A stretch of DNA of 64,000 nucleotides from the NCBI RefSeq assembly GCF_051903065.1, contig NZ_CP178438.1. One strand, 5' to 3'. Within the stretch, counting starts at the first letter, position 1. Each line of letters begins with the position of its first letter. The notes under the pieces were generated by a model, which worked only from the letters and a program-made list of their open reading frames with translations, did not search any database and was not told the origin of the DNA. A program made the translations under genes and the position numbers. This document shows, piece by piece, positions 1 through 55,658 of this stretch. Source of the stretch: Escherichia coli (GTDB taxonomy: Bacteria > Pseudomonadota > Gammaproteobacteria > Enterobacterales > Enterobacteriaceae).

Positions 1-518
1 TGCTACAACAGTCTCTGCGCGGCGAACCGCTCAACCTGCGGGTGTTGATTCGCCAGCCGCTGGTGTTCCCGGAAACCTTGCCGTTGTTACCTGCCCTGGA
101 GCAGTTCCGTAATGCCCGCACGCACTTTGCTTTTGTGGTGGATGAGTTTGGCTCGGTGGAAGGGATTGTGACATTAAGTGACGTCACTGAAACCATTGCC
201 GGTAACTTACCGAACGAAGTGGAAGAGATCGACGCCCGCCATGATATTCAGAAGAATGCGGACGGTTCCTGGACGGCGAATGGTCATATGCCGCTGGAAG
301 ATCTGGTGCAATATGTGCCGCTGCCGCTGGATGAAAAACGTGAATATCACACCATTGCCGGGCTGTTGATGGAGTATTTGCAGCGTATTCCAAAACCTGG
401 CGAAGAAGTTCAGGTAGGGGATTATTTGCTTAAAACGTTGCAGGTAGAAAGCCATCGCGTGCAGAAGGTGCAGATTATACCGCTGCGTAAGGATGGCGAG
501 ATGGAGTACGAGGTGTGA
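1..518 (+). CDS. yegH: YegH-like membrane protein, C-terminal part (CBS pair + CorC/HlyC transporter-associated domain); 5' end lies outside the window
   Basis: Frame open from window start to stop at 516-518; the track ORF 42..518 is only the part after an internal Met. Translation ends in a CorC_HlyC-type domain. Position convergent with asmA matches the E. coli locus. Confidence 0.75.
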   Translation, partial: LQQSLRGEPLNLRVLIRQPLVFPETLPLLPALEQFRNARTHFAFVVDEFGSVEGIVTLSDVTETIAGNLPNEVEEIDARHDIQKNADGSWTANGHMPLEDLVQYVPLPLDEKREYHTIAGLLMEYLQRIPKPGEEVQVGDYLLKTLQVESHRVQKVQIIPLRKDGEMEYEV

Positions 519-689
519 TGGTATCGGTCATTTTACCCGATGCTGCGTAACGCCTTATAACTTCAGCAATGAAGCGTTGTCTGTGGTACATGGACATTAC
601 AGCGGGGGGGTGGGTCCGGCTGTAAATCGCCGAATCGTTTCCTGTGGCCGGGGCAGCCCACATGGATGTGGGCTGAGGGCGCGTTTTAC

Positions 690-2095
690 AGGGATAATGA
701 GATGGACGCTCCAGATTTTACGGTATCAAAGTACCAGACTGGATCGTTGCAATACGTCCTGAAAAATTAGGAGCGTCCACATGAAAGTATCAACTCTTGG
801 TATCGACCTGGCAAAGAACGTTTTTCAGCTTCATGGTGTCGATCATGAAGGCCATACTATTTTGCGTAAAAAGCTCACCCGGGCTAAGTTTGTTCAGTTT
901 GTGATTCAACTGGAACCTTGTCTGATTGGCATGGAAGCCTGCTCATCCAGTCATTATTTTGCGCGATTATTCACCCGCTATGGTCATGAGGTAAAACTCA
1001 TACCTCCGCAGTATGTGAAGCCTTATGTGAAAACGAACAAGACGGATGCAGCAGATGCTGAAGCAATCTGCGAAGCGGTAACCCGTCCGAATATGCGTTT
1101 TGTTCAGATAAAAAACGAAGAGCAGCAGGCCGTTTTAGCGTTACACACTGAACGGGGAATACTTATCCGTGAGCGGATTGCCTGTGCCAATAGTTTAAGA
1201 GCCACACTTGCTGAGTTTGGTATTACGATTGCGGCCGGACAAAGCCATTTAACCCGTGAGCTGCCAGCCATTCTGGAGGATAGCGAAAATGGTTTATCTC
1301 CCTTTGTCAGAACCAGCATCTACAGACAGTCTAAACATATCCGGGAACTTGAAGAACAAGTTAAACAGGTAGAAGAAGCTCTGGCCTCCTGGTATAGAAC
1401 GCAGGAAGCCTGCCAGAGAATGGCCAAAATCCCGGGGGTTGGCATGCTAACGGCCACTTATGTGGTAGCAGCAGTGGGTAATGCCCGACAATTCAGTACC
1501 GCAAAGCAGTTCGCTTCATGGCTGGGGCTGACACCAAAGGAACATTCCAGCGGCGGGAAACAGCAACTGGGAGGGATCAGCAAACGTGGAGATGGATATT
1601 TCCGATACCTGCTGGTTCACGGCGCACGCGCACTTACCGCCTGGGTCAACCGAAACGGCGCGGTTGAGGAGAATTCCTGGCTTCAGGGACTCCTTGAGCG
1701 GAAGCACTACAATGTAGCTGTTGTCGCCATGGCGGCAAAAACAGCGAGGATCATGTGGTCAATGTTGTCACACAATACTGAATATCAACCTCGGCAGCTC
1801 GCCTGACACAAGGTCAGTCAATCTGACGAGGTGCTGAAAAAAAGTTAACGTCCTGGTAGGTGCAGGTGACTTCAGAAGATGGCAAAACAGGTAAGACCGC
1901 AGGCAGGATACACCGAGAGGTAACAAGGGCAAGTTAGCCCGTAGAGGATGATTGGTACCTGCCTGGCGGATTTCATCATGGTTCGGGATAAAAATCCCAT
2001 CAGAAACCGGATATATGGCTGCACCTACCCGTTTTATTACATAACTGAAGAAAGCATTGCATTCCGGGAGCGTCCATATATGTTACCTCGTGCCC
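690..2095 (+). mobile_element. IS110/IS1111-family insertion sequence (boundaries approximate)
   Basis: Single transposase ORF with short 5' and ~280 bp 3' non-coding regions. A 10-bp motif GGAGCGTCCA occurs at 770-779 and 2067-2076, with its inverse TGGACGCTCC at 703-712. A REP element lies immediately to the right. Exact termini cannot be fixed without an empty-site comparison. Confidence 0.5.
781..1806 (+). CDS. IS110-family (IS1111-group-like) DEDD transposase, 341 aa
   Basis: SD AGGAG (769-773) 7 nt before the ATG. N-terminal LGIDLAKN...D and C-terminal IPGVG...LGISKRG motifs are typical of IS110/IS1111 transposases; overall resemblance to IS4321/IS5075-type proteins is from memory. Confidence 0.8.
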   Translation: MKVSTLGIDLAKNVFQLHGVDHEGHTILRKKLTRAKFVQFVIQLEPCLIGMEACSSSHYFARLFTRYGHEVKLIPPQYVKPYVKTNKTDAADAEAICEAVTRPNMRFVQIKNEEQQAVLALHTERGILIRERIACANSLRATLAEFGITIAAGQSHLTRELPAILEDSENGLSPFVRTSIYRQSKHIRELEEQVKQVEEALASWYRTQEACQRMAKIPGVGMLTATYVVAAVGNARQFSTAKQFASWLGLTPKEHSSGGKQQLGGISKRGDGYFRYLLVHGARALTAWVNRNGAVEENSWLQGLLERKHYNVAVVAMAAKTARIMWSMLSHNTEYQPRQLA

Positions 2096-17246: not shown

Positions 17247-18623
17247 ATGCGCATTTCAAAAAATGAAAAATACCTTTCATTGATTATGATAGCATTTTAC
17301 TTGCCATTTTTATTATCTGATTTACCTTTTAGGGACGATCTAAGCAGGACTTATTGGGGTTTTGTTGGGTTGTCTCAATTAGGTAGACCATTGGCAGACA
17401 TTGTTTATAGTTTGGTTGGATTTGGCTATGAGGGTGTTAACCTCAGCCCTATGCCTAAAATTATAGCGCTATTAATAATATTATCGTCTGCGATATTTTC
17501 ATACAGAACGCTATTCAACTCAATAGGAGCAACCGGGTTACTCTCTTTATCTATTTTCTTTGCAAATCCATTTATTATTCAAAATTTTGCATATCAGTAC
17601 GACTGTTTTCCAATGGCTTTATCTATTTTATTGGCGACATTATCTGTATTATATAGACCAAGATCAAGCTATTTTTATTTTCTTAGCGCATCATTTTTAT
17701 TAACTAGCGCAATATCACTTTATCAAGCATCTATATTTATTGCGGCATCTTTATATTTATGTAAGATCACTATTTATTTCGTTAACGATAGAAATCGCAG
17801 AGATGTTTTTATAGAATGCATGCTTACTCTTTTGTCTTCTTTTTTCTCTATTGCATGTTACATGGTGATTTTACTTTTTGTAGAAAATGGCGTGTCAAAA
17901 CGAGCTAGCATTACAGGGCCAAGTGGCGTTATTAGCAATATCGAGTTCCTTTTGGATAGGTTAAATAGCCTTTACCACTCGGTTTATATTTTTTTTATTA
18001 TTTTGTCATTAGTATTAATATTCTCTCTCTTGAGGATTTTTATCCTAAAAAGATATATCAATTTATGCGTGATATTACTAATACTTGTTGCGCTGCTAGT
18101 CTCTTCCCTACTCCCATCTGTCATCCTTAAGGAAGGGTTCGCCGGACCAAGAGTTTTAATGTCTATTTGTTCGGTATTTATATTTATATCTATCATTGCA
18201 ACCGGAAAAGAAAAATACGTATACGCCATGGTGTTATCTGTTTTAATGATGCATTCCATGTCTATTTCATACGCATTTTCAGGTGACATTAAGGCACAAT
18301 ACGATAGATACTCGATGATATCATCTCTTGTTTATAAAGATATTGATAATTACGTGTCGTCAAATACAGCAAAAATATACATTTCTTGCAAATCAACCCC
18401 ATCACAAAGAGAGTACGTTTTCTATAAATTCAACAATCACATAGCATGGCTCAACCCAGAAGAGGCTTGGGCTATCAGGTTTTTCATAAGAAATAATGGC
18501 GAGAGCAGGGTGGTGCACTCATGGGATGAATGCTTTGATATAAATGGAGGTAAGATCGTTAAAGAAAATGCATTTTATAAAATGGTTGAAAATAAAAATT
18601 CTTACTATTTCATAATGAAATAA
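17247..18623 (+). CDS. gtrC: GtrC-type serotype-specific O-antigen glucosyltransferase (polytopic membrane protein), 458 aa
   Basis: Third gene of a gtr operon; highly hydrophobic and AT-rich with strong codon bias relative to its neighbours, typical of horizontally acquired gtrC-type genes. Target specificity cannot be called from sequence. Confidence 0.7.
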   Translation: MRISKNEKYLSLIMIAFYLPFLLSDLPFRDDLSRTYWGFVGLSQLGRPLADIVYSLVGFGYEGVNLSPMPKIIALLIILSSAIFSYRTLFNSIGATGLLSLSIFFANPFIIQNFAYQYDCFPMALSILLATLSVLYRPRSSYFYFLSASFLLTSAISLYQASIFIAASLYLCKITIYFVNDRNRRDVFIECMLTLLSSFFSIACYMVILLFVENGVSKRASITGPSGVISNIEFLLDRLNSLYHSVYIFFIILSLVLIFSLLRIFILKRYINLCVILLILVALLVSSLLPSVILKEGFAGPRVLMSICSVFIFISIIATGKEKYVYAMVLSVLMMHSMSISYAFSGDIKAQYDRYSMISSLVYKDIDNYVSSNTAKIYISCKSTPSQREYVFYKFNNHIAWLNPEEAWAIRFFIRNNGESRVVHSWDECFDINGGKIVKENAFYKMVENKNSYYFIMK

Positions 18624-18630
18624 ATATAGG

Positions 18631-18662
18631 CGGGGGGGGGGGTAACAATCCCCCGTCTTTTT
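18631..18662 (+). terminator. Rho-independent terminator after gtrC
   Basis: CGGGGGGGGGGG-TAACAAT-CCCCCG hairpin (G11 run pairing with C5) followed by TCTTTTTT. Confidence 0.6.
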
Positions 18663-18849: not shown

Positions 18850-21381
18850 CTATATAACGGATAGCGTTCTTATGTCATTGCTAGCTGGTGATGCCATAAC
18901 TATCTGTGTTACGTTAGCGCCAGACACCGTATACGTCAGAATTACGTTACCAACGGCTCCTATATTAAAGTTTTGTTTAGCTCCTGAGGTACCTATAGCT
19001 CTGGCATTCGTTAAAGTATACGTGCTTCCCGCAGTGAATCCTGTAGCAATTACAAATTGTTGACCAACTTTAAAAGGAACTGTCATTGTTGCGGATGTTG
19101 ACTCGACAGTAGCAAACGGCAGGCCAGGCTGTTTAACCCCCGTCACATCCCAGAACTCACAGTTACGCACCAATGCTCGACCAATTAAATCGCGAGTTAC
19201 AGGGAATGTTGTCTGGTCCTGTGATAAGAATGCTCCAACAATTTGCACGTTATCGAGCGTAATATCGTGTACTGTGGCCCCATCTATAGGACTTAACGTT
19301 GGTGATGCACTCCATAATTTACCACCCTTCATTTTGATACTTACAGGCCCGTTAGGGTCTGTCCCTCTAAAAGCGCGAATACTCTCAAATTTGCAATCTG
19401 TAAATTCATAGCTGCCGCGTTGGTTAGTTTCGAACAATGTATACGCCTCACCTGACACTCCGTGTCTTACATCACTGGCAACAACGCGCGGATTATGGCG
19501 GAATGATGCAGACGTGACAGAGAAAAATGGCGCGCAGACATCGTTAATAAGAATGTCTGTTGTATAACGCCCTGTAACAGCGCTCTCAGAGTCACTCATA
19601 TCCGAATATAGCGCTTTGAAGCGGGAGAAGTCTATGTTTAGACCTATTCCTGCACTTTTTGGTAATTGTCCAAAATCAAGCCCGTCAATAACAATTTTCT
19701 TAGGGAAATAAAGGGTGTTATCTCGAGCTACAGTTATTAATGTACCCGGATAAGTCAAGACGAAACCTGGATACATTTTAACATCTTTCAAGGTAACATT
19801 ATTGAATAACGTGGGGCTTATAGGCGACCCGCTACTAGGCCCTTGCCCAGCAGTAACAGCTGCGTTTATGATACCATTTCCGGGTGCGCCGCTGCGCAGG
19901 CCAGTTAACTTAATATTCTCCATGTATAAATCACCATCGAAGCCCCCCCCCAGCGTCAGAGCGAGTCGAAATAATATTACCAGGCTTATATGGTGAAGCA
20001 TTAAATATTGAATTGGTTACATACAAATCCCCGATACCAGAAGCGACGACACCATAAGTCCCAATATTACAGTCATTTATCTTTAAGTAGTTTTGGAAAG
20101 GTCTGTGGAAATCAATTCGACTAAGATCGCATCTTTCAAACCTTATATTGGCGCAATTATTGCTGCCTGTTGCCCCCCAGCCTTTACCATTTGCCGTTGC
20201 GTTTTTGATAGTGACATCCATAGAGTTAGATAGGGTTAAGGCGTATGCGTAGCTATCAACACCATCTATTAAGGCGTTTGCTATGGCTGGCGTGTATAAA
20301 CCATCAACTGTAACATCATAGCTTTCGTTAATTTCTATCCTGATATCATTAAAGTTTTGCGTTATCGGTCTGTTAATAAATGTCGTATTAACCAAGCGAA
20401 CTCGTGATGCTTGATTAATATAAATAATTCGATAATTCTTTGTAAGACTTTCGTCTATAGTCAATCCCTTAAGGTCTGCACATCTTTGCGTATTTTAAGT
20501 GCTTTAATTGATGTTGCGTTAGTTCCTAGGGCGTACTTAAGCGGGTTTTCAATGTATCCACGGTTATATACCCTGTTGAAATCTACGCGAGTTTGATTAA
20601 CGCCATCGAAAATAAACATAGGTTGAGATGTCGATAACTGAATGAAGCAACCGTCAAGGTCGGTATTAGAAGCCAAACCATCAAGATAGTTGCTACCTAT
20701 GTCGCGAGAGCCACTGGTGGACGTATTAACTCCATTAACTGGAGCCGAACCAGAACCGTATGTAACAGGGGCGACAGGCTGGCTAATAACAATTTGCCCT
20801 TTCCATGTAGCCGATGGTTTAAGCACACACCCGGTTAAATCCACATTTAAACTTTTAATATCAAGATAAGTATCACCATCTAGTAGAAAAGTTCCGTCAG
20901 ATTGCCTAACGTCTAAATTATTTGAATAAGCATAGTTCAGTGCCTTAGCTATGGCGGGAGCGTCATTTGTTACTCCATCACCAATAGCGCCAAACTCCTT
21001 CAACGTTACCCAGTATTTTACTTTCTCCAAGCTCTTTTGATATTGATCTGGGTCGTACTTCAGCACATTAGGAAAATAGAACTGCTGCGCACCATATGCA
21101 TCATAAACAGCCATAGAGTGGCCTTGCACAGTTACGAACTTGGCAATCTGTCCGTTATATACCGGATATCCAGCAGCGTTAATGATGATTGGTTGTGAAA
21201 CAGGAACGTGAGAACCATCCTCATTCTCCACATAAATCTGAATCTGGTTTTCAGGATTTACCGGGTCAGTGTCAATTTTTCCTATATAAATTTTGCCATT
21301 GGCAACCGCTTTAAAAGAACGTGCCATAGTGAAGAGTTGCGAAGGCATGCTTACCACAACATTTGCGGTGATATCTGTCAT
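18850..21381 (-). pseudogene. P22-like phage tailspike gene broken into three reading-frame segments (306 + 177 + 383 aa)
   Basis: The N-terminal ~120 aa ([34 protein letters not shown]...VLKYDPDQY) is the conserved P22-family tailspike head-binding domain. Downstream segments are beta-helix-like. Frames switch near 20461-20464 and at a G9 run (C9 on + strand, 19943-19951). Confidence 0.7.
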
Positions 21382-53661: not shown

Positions 53662-53800
53662 AGTTTGCTCCTGCCATAACGTGAAGAAGCAATGACCTGG
53701 TGGTCCGTGACTTCCCTACGCTGGCATTATCCAGATCAGGTGATACGGGTATTTCTCAGCCTTCACGCAGAAGGGCACCCCGAGTCGTTTGGTTGCGATG
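53662..53800 (-). promoter_or_regulatory. TPP (thi-box) riboswitch in the thiM leader
   Basis: Minus-strand sequence ...GGGGTGCCCTTCTGCGTGAAGGCTGAGAAATACCCGTATCACCTGATCTGGATAATGCCAGCGTAGGGAAGTCACGGACCACCAGGTCATTGC... matches the thiM TPP aptamer as I recall it. Confidence 0.85.
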
Positions 53801-54156: not shown

Positions 54157-54204
54157 GGCAACACCTGGTTAACAAGAATATGAAAAATCATAGCACTATT
54201 AATC

Positions 54205-54239
54205 TACTGGGGGGTAGTATCAGGTACTGGGGGGGAGTA
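54205..54239. promoter_or_regulatory. Two RcnR operator sites (TACT-G6-N-AGTA)
   Basis: TACTGGGGGGTAGTA (54205-54219) and TACTGGGGGGGAGTA (54225-54239) in the rcnR-rcnA intergenic region. Confidence 0.7.
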
Positions 54240-54276
54240 GAATAAGATTGCCGAATTAATACTAAGAATTATTATC

Positions 54277-55101
54277 ATGACCGAATTTACAACTCTTCTT
54301 CAGCAAGGAAACGCCTGGTTCTTCATCCCCAGCGCCATCTTACTTGGTGCGCTTCATGGCCTGGAACCAGGGCACTCAAAAACGATGATGGCGGCGTTTA
54401 TCATCGCCATCAAAGGCACCATTAAACAGGCGGTGATGCTCGGACTGGCAGCAACCATTTCACATACTGCGGTGGTCTGGTTGATTGCCTTTGGCGGGAT
54501 GGTGATCAGCAAGCGCTTTACTGCTCAATCAGCAGAACCGTGGCTCCAGCTGATTTCCGCAGTGATCATTATTAGCACCGCGTTCTGGATGTTCTGGCGT
54601 ACCTGGCGCGGCGAACGCAACTGGCTGGAGAATATGCACGAGCATGATCATGAGCATCATCACCACGATCACGAAGATCACCAAGACCATGGACATCATC
54701 ACCATCACGAACATGGCGAGTATCAGGATGCCCATGCACGAGCCCATGCCAATGACATTAAACGACGCTTTGATGGTAGAGAGGTCACCAACTGGCAAAT
54801 TTTGCTATTTGGCTTAACCGGTGGCCTTATCCCCTGCCCGGCAGCAATTACCGTGCTGTTGATTTGCATTCAGTTGAAAGCCCTGACACTGGGCGCAACA
54901 CTGGTCGTCAGTTTCAGCATTGGCCTGGCGTTAACGCTGGTCACCGTAGGCGTTGGCGCAGCAATCAGCGTTCAGCAGGTCGCAAAACGCTGGAGCGGAT
55001 TTAACACTCTCGCTAAACGCGCCCCCTATTTTTCCAGTCTGTTGATTGGCTTAGTCGGTGTGTATATGGGCGTACATGGATTCATGGGCATAATGCGATA
55101 A
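54277..55101 (+). CDS. rcnA: Ni/Co efflux permease RcnA, 274 aa
   Basis: Membrane protein with a His-rich cytoplasmic loop (HEHDHEHHHHDHEDHQDHGHHHHHEHGE). Confidence 0.9.
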   Translation: MTEFTTLLQQGNAWFFIPSAILLGALHGLEPGHSKTMMAAFIIAIKGTIKQAVMLGLAATISHTAVVWLIAFGGMVISKRFTAQSAEPWLQLISAVIIISTAFWMFWRTWRGERNWLENMHEHDHEHHHHDHEDHQDHGHHHHHEHGEYQDAHARAHANDIKRRFDGREVTNWQILLFGLTGGLIPCPAAITVLLICIQLKALTLGATLVVSFSIGLALTLVTVGVGAAISVQQVAKRWSGFNTLAKRAPYFSSLLIGLVGVYMGVHGFMGIMR

Positions 55102-55319: not shown

Positions 55320-55658
55320 ATGACCATTAAATATAAGATGTTGCTGGGTGCGCTTTTGCTGGTTACCAGTGCCGCCTGGGCCGCACCAGCCACCGCGGGT
55401 TCGACCAATACCTCGGGAATTTCTAAGTATGAGTTAAGCAGTTTCATTGCTGACTTTAAGCATTTCAAACCAGGGGACACCGTACCAGAAATGTACCGTA
55501 CCGATGAGTACAACATTAAGCAGTGGCAGTTGCGTAACCTGCCCGCACCTGACGCCGGAACCCACTGGACCTATATGGGTGGCGCGTACGTGTTGATCAG
55601 CGACACCGACGGTAAAATCATTAAAGCCTACGACGGTGAGATTTTTTATCATCGCTAA
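55320..55658 (+). CDS. rcnB: Periplasmic RcnB (YohN), 112 aa
   Basis: Start taken at MTIKYKMLLGALLLVTSAAWA (signal peptide); track ORF extends 60 codons upstream. Confidence 0.8.
   Translation: MTIKYKMLLGALLLVTSAAWAAPATAGSTNTSGISKYELSSFIADFKHFKPGDTVPEMYRTDEYNIKQWQLRNLPAPDAGTHWTYMGGAYVLISDTDGKIIKAYDGEIFYHR

Follow-up and report, generated by a model that had tools for sequence, protein, structure and literature searches.

Two short sites, each built around a run of guanines, lie in the divergent promoter of rcnR and rcnA in Escherichia coli, and they raise the question of what the runs are for. Do they form a mutable element that switches nickel and cobalt efflux on and off, or do they hold the two halves of a repressor site at a fixed distance, and how far does their length vary among strains? 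We examined these questions in a 64,000-nt stretch of E. coli DNA (the window) and in the corresponding loci of other genomes and plasmids. The site pair is the known tandem RcnR operator of the rcnR-rcnA promoter, so the feature itself was known already. Our overall explanation, to which we give a probability of roughly 93%, is that the runs set the geometry of the RcnR operator and that rare slippage variants of them occur, with the mechanism taken from published work on the identical sequence.

The operator and its promoters

A sequence-only reading of the window had placed two TACT-G6-N-AGTA sites in this promoter, had noted a G run of 6 or 7 in each, had identified them as paired RcnR operators and had called the matter mostly textbook regulation. 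Each of these statements held. The coordinates were exact and the two sites were the sole matches in the 64 kb; the run is G6 in site 1 and G7 in site 2; and identity with K-12, the equivalog matches of the flanking genes and the literature all agree on the assignment to the published K-12 operator (Table 1). Site 2 matches TACT-G6-N-AGTA only if N is G, and its run length is therefore 7. When TACTGGGGGGNAGTA was searched on both strands with up to two mismatches allowed, it was matched twice in the 64 kb, both times with none. The shuffle expectation was 0.19 matches, with 1 of 100 shuffles reaching two, and a chance origin of the pair was thereby ruled out. A repeat search also recovered the two sites, as a 15-nt direct repeat with a spacing of 20 bp.

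The two genes are divergent and the 120-bp interval between them contains both sites. In every E. coli record that we fetched, the counterpart coding sequence is named rcnR and encodes the protein WP_000019944.1; in O111 and O121 genomes the position equivalent to that of our third gene is annotated as rcnB. The K-12 operator region has the same flanking genes, and it is identical to the window over the entire sequence from the rcnR start through site 2, including the two 15-bp sites and the spacer of 5 bp. A single substitution, outside the sites, separates the two regions: position 54244, directly after the predicted −10 hexamer, is A in the window and C in K-12 and most E. coli. In an even sample of 60 genomes, only about 4 had the A.

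Table 1. Coordinates of the operator, its flanking genes and other elements mentioned in the text (positions in the window)
Feature	Position	Strand	Basis or remark
rcnR, Ni(II)/Co(II)-responsive repressor, 90 aa	53884-54156	−	NCBIfam equivalog NF011613, E = 4e-59, 197 bits (cutoff 138)
Candidate rcnR extended −10, TGCTATGAT	54187-54195	−	Predicted from conservation
Imperfect dyad around both sites	Arms 54193-54208 and 54236-54251		Repeat search; arms 81% complementary
RcnR operator site 1, TACTGGGGGGTAGTA (TACT-G6-T-AGTA)	54205-54219; G6 at 54209-54214		Sequence read directly; same in K-12
Inter-site spacer TCAGG, 5 bp	54220-54224		Repeat search; start-to-start 20 bp
RcnR operator site 2, TACTGGGGGGGAGTA (TACT-G7-AGTA)	54225-54239; G7 at 54229-54235		Sequence read directly; repeat search
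Candidate rcnA −10 hexamer TAGAAT	54238-54243	+	Predicted from conservation; overlaps the AGTA half-site of site 2
Conserved motif AAGAAT(T/C)ATT(A/C)TCATG	54260-54279		Up to and including the rcnA start codon
rcnA, Ni/Co efflux pump with His-rich loop	54277-55101	+	NCBIfam NF007454, E = 4e-168, 558 bits (cutoff 195)
rcnB, periplasmic accessory protein of RcnA, 3' of rcnA	55320-55658	+	Pfam PF11776 (RcnB), E = 7e-19
TPP riboswitch	53696-53792	−	RF00059, 71 bits
ORF upstream of the transposase	42-518		C-terminal part of PaeA/CorC-type transporter models only
G7 run	604-610		Non-coding leader, about 170 bp upstream of the transposase
IS110-family transposase	781-1806		NCBIfam NF033542, 358 bits
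GtrII-type glucosyltransferase ORF	17247-18623		PF14264
G11 run	18632-18642		Followed by TAACAATCCCCCGTCTTTTTT
Tailspike-like gene, three ORFs	20461-21381, 19931-20464, 18850-20001	−	P22-type head-binding domain PF09008
C9 run	19943-19951		Junction of two overlapping ORFs, downstream of the PF09008 ORF

The regulation of the K-12 operator is described in three papers (PMC3902906, PMC7055735, PMC7105576), which attribute the tandem TACT-G6-N-AGTA operator to Iwig & Chivers 2009 (J Mol Biol 393:514) and also cite Blaha et al. 2011. As summarised there, one apo-RcnR tetramer occupies each site and touches the inverted TACT/AGTA half-sites through the minor groove; the G/C tract is A-form-like and is read indirectly, by its shape, while the protein wraps the flanking DNA. 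Apo-RcnR represses both rcnA and rcnR, and Ni(II) or Co(II) lowers its affinity for DNA, so that RcnA is expressed. PMC5709419 provides context on the abundance of RcnR and its affinity for DNA, and PMC4528141 does not discuss tracts.

On this basis, the two sites of the window are the operator that the divergent promoters of rcnR and rcnA(B) have in common, where a tetramer of apo-RcnR on each site would keep both rcnA and rcnR repressed until Ni(II) or Co(II) binding weakened its hold on the DNA and the efflux pump RcnA was made. RcnR would be bound over both −10 elements and block RNA polymerase at both promoters. The G-runs would provide a fixed distance of 7 bp and the DNA geometry between the half-sites, and would not act as a mutational switch. 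Replication slippage does give rise to heritable one-base variants at low frequency, some of them fixed in lineages.

The positions of the −10 elements were predicted from conservation among the species loci described below. A TAnnnT hexamer whose first two bases are the final TA of the rcnA-proximal site was found in 78 of 79 loci (TAGAAT in 48). On the rcnR-sense strand, about 51 of 70 loci have TGnTAnnnT at a constant distance of 13 nt from the rcnR-proximal site. These conserved motifs are plausible −10 (rcnA) and extended −10 (rcnR) elements of the divergent promoters. If so, site 1 would lie just upstream of the extended −10 of rcnR, and the outer half-site of site 2 would overlap the −10 of rcnA; the G7 run lies directly upstream of the latter hexamer and within the repressor site. 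A generic promoter scan returned hexamers inside the rcnR coding sequence or a −10 against the rcnA ATG, and the conservation-backed elements were preferred to these. The larger dyad around both sites fits a divergent, roughly symmetric promoter layout, as well as the published contacts with flanking DNA and its wrapping.

Two further elements near the promoter should be mentioned. An Rfam scan of the intergenic region gave no RNA element above the gathering thresholds; the only match was the TPP riboswitch of thiM, a known element that lies 5' of thiM and adjoins the 3' end of rcnR. The motif that ends with the rcnA start codon is kept across many genera. Its conservation goes well past what a ribosome-binding site needs, and it looks like a part of a Fur-box-like AT-rich repeat.

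Conservation across species and plasmids

By a search with the RcnR protein, one genome per species, we obtained 80 loci from Escherichia, Citrobacter, Salmonella, Kosakonia, Rahnella, Hafnia, Edwardsiella and Morganella to Vibrio europaeus. Their upstream regions were oriented as in the window and scanned for half-site pairs. At least one site was present in 79 of the 80 loci (two sites in 61, three in 9 and one in 9). Among the 158 sites of these 79 species, the distance from TACT to AGTA was 7 bp in 153, 8 bp in 3 and 6 bp in 2, and the main sites were 20 bp apart, start to start, in 67 of 70 loci. GGGGGGT was the commonest inner sequence of the rcnR-proximal site (59 of the 70 loci with at least two sites), and the rcnA-proximal site had an inner G7 in 73 of 79. 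The intergenic DNA around the sites diverges freely in these loci, and the sites are conserved more than this flank.

Some runs are interrupted by substitutions (TACTAGGGGGTAGTA, TACTGGGTGGTAGTA, TACTGGGCAGTAGTA, TACTGGGGGATAGTA) and still hold the length of 7 bp. Because the length is kept even when the run is broken, selection acts on length and shape rather than on mutability. The pattern indicates that what is selected is the length and geometry between the half-sites, which fits the published shape-readout model, and that the half-site spacing is under purifying selection. Conservation of 7 bp this strong across species argues that length changes do matter and are mostly selected against. 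Off-length tracts were found in a few representatives, namely Citrobacter sp. R56 (G6), Enterobacter sp. R1 (G8), Morganella morganii Mm1 (G8) and S. enterica arizonae (G5).

The same arrangement occurs on plasmids. The rcnR-rcnA module of IncHI2 plasmids has the same TACTGGGGGGTAGTA-N5-TACTGGGGGGGAGTAGAAT core between divergent rcnR and rcnA, whereas the module as a whole, like the intergenic DNA around this core, shares only about 75% identity with that of the window and RcnA is longer (1,116-nt gene). Modules of this type were found on 414 plasmids, mostly conjugative, and the G6/G7 pair is retained. The hosts were mostly Enterobacter, Salmonella, Klebsiella and Citrobacter, and the diverged, mobile module, as on the IncHI2 plasmid pR47-309, lies next to pcoS in an mcr-9 context.

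Departures in the number of sites were also seen. In 9 of the 80 species (Kosakonia, Phytobacter and some Enterobacter) the usual pair is preceded, 21 bp upstream on the side of rcnR, by a third site, AACT-G7-AGTT. In Escherichia whittamii Sa2BVA5 the start of rcnR is fused to an internal part of rcnA; the entire intergenic region is absent, as is the 5' end of rcnA, apparently through a deletion between the short AAC(A/G)CCTGGTT repeats at both ends.

The type-2 CsoR operators of Streptomyces lividans and Bacillus subtilis, whose repressors belong to the same family as RcnR, resemble the sites described here in that G/C tracts are combined with an AT-rich dyad (GTA/TAC) and are A-form-like and read by shape. 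However, a type-2 site has two short G/C tracts with 2-4 bases between them, its inverted repeats lie about 11 bp apart, and it binds two tetramers; an RcnR site, which is of type 1, has a single unbroken tract with half-sites 7 bp apart, and binds one.

Length of the G-runs in E. coli

Short query sequences with the operator at their centre were searched against 5,426 complete E. coli genomes. Of the 5,343 that bear the locus, 4,815 matched the 63-nt core at 54181-54243 (G6/G7) exactly. Synthetic one-base variants were then queried in a K-12-type background of 68 nt and exact matches were counted: G6/G7 was found in 4,151 genomes, G6/G8 in 104, G6/G6 in 113, G7/G7 in 28 and G5/G7 in 17. The one-base variants sum to 262 of 4,413 genomes, about 6%, in this background, and the G7 run of site 2 varied about five times as often as the run of site 1. 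In all three indel-bearing genomes that were fetched and aligned, the indel lay within a G-run, while the substitutions inspected in E. coli fell in the 5-bp spacer (TCATG, TTAGG) or the outer flank and none in the sites.

The sequence-only reading had proposed that slippage in the runs could in principle alter spacing and repressor binding, and had named an invariant tract length across strains, together with an absence of effect on repression, as the result that would count against it. The idea is partly borne out: compared across E. coli genomes the tracts are not invariant, so the first half of that objection falls, and length varies in about 6% of genomes, with expansions about 100-fold above the error control described below. 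A literature search on natural variation of rcnA and rcnR (phase variation, homopolymeric tracts, experimental evolution) found nothing relevant.

Some of the variants are shared by whole lineages. G8 at site 2 was found in many O121 and O121:H19 genomes from different laboratories, and G6 at site 2 in the O111 strains 11128, 110512, RM9322, 95NR1, 95JB1 and FWSEC0005 and in an O111:H8 strain. Representatives of O111 and O121 have intact copies of rcnR, rcnA and rcnB and an unaltered RcnR protein. This sharing within O121 and O111 identifies them as real alleles, independently of the error control.

Two structural variants were noticed in addition. E. coli 97_3250 (locus L008, positions 1482-1581) has a 20-bp deletion between direct repeats that leaves one TACT-G7-AGTA site in an intergenic region of 100 bp. 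The single-site allele was verified in this strain, and partial matches to it occur in at most about 9 E. coli genomes; a count of full matches is not informative, since two pieces of a normal genome can join into one. In E. coli ETEC4085 (locus L005, positions 1631-2436) an IS5-family element lies between site 2 and the rcnA start and separates rcnA from its promoter and operator.

What the length variants mean

The variants behave as rare cis-regulatory alleles that are probably mildly deleterious or near-neutral and may occasionally be useful. They reach a frequency of about 6% and are fixed in two successful pathogen lineages. Some length changes are clearly tolerated, and instead of being deleterious these may be neutral, or even adaptive.

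A stronger claim would be that the G8 of O121:H19 and the G6 of O111 are adaptive cis-regulatory alleles, in which the binding of RcnR at site 2 is weakened or retuned and the −35/−10 spacing is altered too, resetting the basal efflux of nickel and cobalt in those lineages. Their fixation in successful lineages with intact rcnR, rcnA and rcnB and an unchanged repressor is in its favour, and, since they alter a half-site spacing that is extremely conserved elsewhere, an effect on binding is plausible. On the other hand, an allele can become fixed in a clonal lineage by hitch-hiking alone, and type-1 sites across the wider CsoR/RcnR family span 6-9 bp according to the literature, so that RcnR might tolerate a change of one base with little effect. 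We regard adaptive alleles as unlikely, and it is with equal reserve that we put forward the related idea that these STEC-fixed alleles, together with rarer ones such as the 20-bp deletion, may be functional variants that reset basal nickel and cobalt efflux. If this were true, nature would have supplied an allelic series on half-site spacing and G-tract geometry for a repressor of the CsoR/RcnR family.

Could all of the length differences be homopolymer errors of long-read assemblies, with a tract that is invariant in nature? As an error baseline for homopolymer miscalls in such assemblies we used a C7 run in tsaC, an essential gene in which a frameshift should be lethal. (A 50-kb stretch of K-12 scanned for a control contained no run of seven, and a second stretch gave the tsaC run; the only other G7 of the window, upstream of the IS110-family transposase, was rejected as multi-copy and mobile.) The tsaC run was exact in 4,356 genomes, one base longer in 1 and one base shorter in 52, as against 4,151, 104 and 113, respectively, for the G7 of site 2. 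Expansions thus exceeded the control about 100-fold (Fisher OR 109, p = 4.5e-31) and contractions about 2-fold (Fisher OR 2.3, p = 5e-7). The control gauges assembly error; it is no measure of how fast a neutral G7 run slips, nor of how far variation at the operator is depressed relative to such an unconstrained run.

The +1 expansions are real, and part of the −1 contractions are assembly artefacts. The 52 genomes with C6 in the essential tsaC must be errors. Moreover, 2014C-3061 and series such as ETEC17xx and CP1272xx-CP1273xx also show operator contractions, and since the same assemblies or projects (2014C-3061, for example) appear in both lists of contractions, those at the operator are partly artefactual. 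Strain Tig228, with G8, also has a frameshifted rcnA annotation. However, the control shows a single expansion, whereas G8 at site 2 was counted in 104 genomes and G7 at site 1 in 28, and error would not account for a G8 found in many O121:H19 genomes of different laboratories or a G6 common to O111 genomes. Strain 11128 of O111, which was presumably sequenced by Sanger methods, counts against it as well. It is therefore very unlikely that error explains all of the differences. About 1% of complete assemblies seem to under-call a 7-nt G/C run, as judged from the essential-gene control in about 4,400 comparable genomes, and the tract length of any single genome should not be over-interpreted.

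Given that real variants exist, one may ask whether the G-runs are a phase-variable contingency locus, in which slippage shifts the operator and the −35/−10 spacing and so switches efflux reversibly. Length variants recur in unrelated E. coli strains and occur in the representatives of other species named above (R56, R1, Mm1 and arizonae), and a G7 between a predicted −10 and a would-be −35 has the geometry of a classical phase-variable promoter. Such promoters, with a homopolymer in the −35/−10 spacer, are those of porA and opc in Neisseria and of fim in Bordetella, where, as is predicted here, a G/C homopolymer lies in the promoter and one-base changes alter its spacing. But the tracts of contingency loci are typically about 8 nt or longer (Neisseria, Haemophilus, Campylobacter), and the runs here are only 6-7 nt. 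One allele is dominant, being exact in about 90% of E. coli, and the 7-bp length holds in 97% of sites across 79 species, the opposite of the length scatter at true contingency loci; neither a long homopolymer nor many lengths without a dominant one is found. The tract variants are only one base longer or shorter, those that are shared track lineages (O111, O121) and so are stably inherited rather than switching, and substitutions that interrupt the run are tolerated if the 7 bp are kept. Compared to porA, opc and fim, therefore, the tract is much shorter, has one dominant length within and between species, varies by inheritance in lineages without switching, and is primarily part of a repressor site. 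From its short runs, one dominant allele, changes of one base only and lineage-stable variants, we conclude that the G-run pair is not a contingency locus, and phase variation here is hardly credible.

It is barely conceivable that the runs form a G-quadruplex or another non-B structure that regulates transcription without RcnR, as two same-strand G-runs of 6-7 within 27 nt and the published A-form-like character of the operator DNA might suggest, because with two runs only an intramolecular form would need them to be split by single-G loops, and because species with interrupted runs or a single site retain the TACT/AGTA half-sites, which points to recognition by a protein.

Other homopolymers in the window

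Longer runs than those of the operator occur elsewhere in the window (Table 1). A G11 run lies directly after the GtrII-type glucosyltransferase ORF and is followed by TAACAATCCCCCGTCTTTTTT; together they resemble a terminator with a G/C stem and a T-run, and an 11-nt homopolymer is long enough for slippage. A C9 run lies where two overlapping ORFs meet in a tailspike-like gene that is apparently split into three ORFs, possibly by a homopolymer frameshift; it may also be a pseudogene, a product of misassembly or a prophage gene subject to phase variation. Near one end of the window, the ORF upstream of the IS110-family transposase matches only the C-terminal part of its transporter models.

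Significance

The operator is established textbook regulation; its confirmation adds nothing new, and the population survey is a small addition. The half-site spacing set by the G-runs is among the most conserved non-coding features of the locus in Enterobacterales and on IncHI2 plasmids. Even so, real slippage alleles of one base persist, in about 6% of the complete genomes of E. coli, and two STEC serogroups have them fixed. If these alleles alter repression, they would offer a ready-made natural series for the shape readout of DNA by RcnR, and they could explain differences among strains in nickel and cobalt tolerance or in RcnR-based biosensors.
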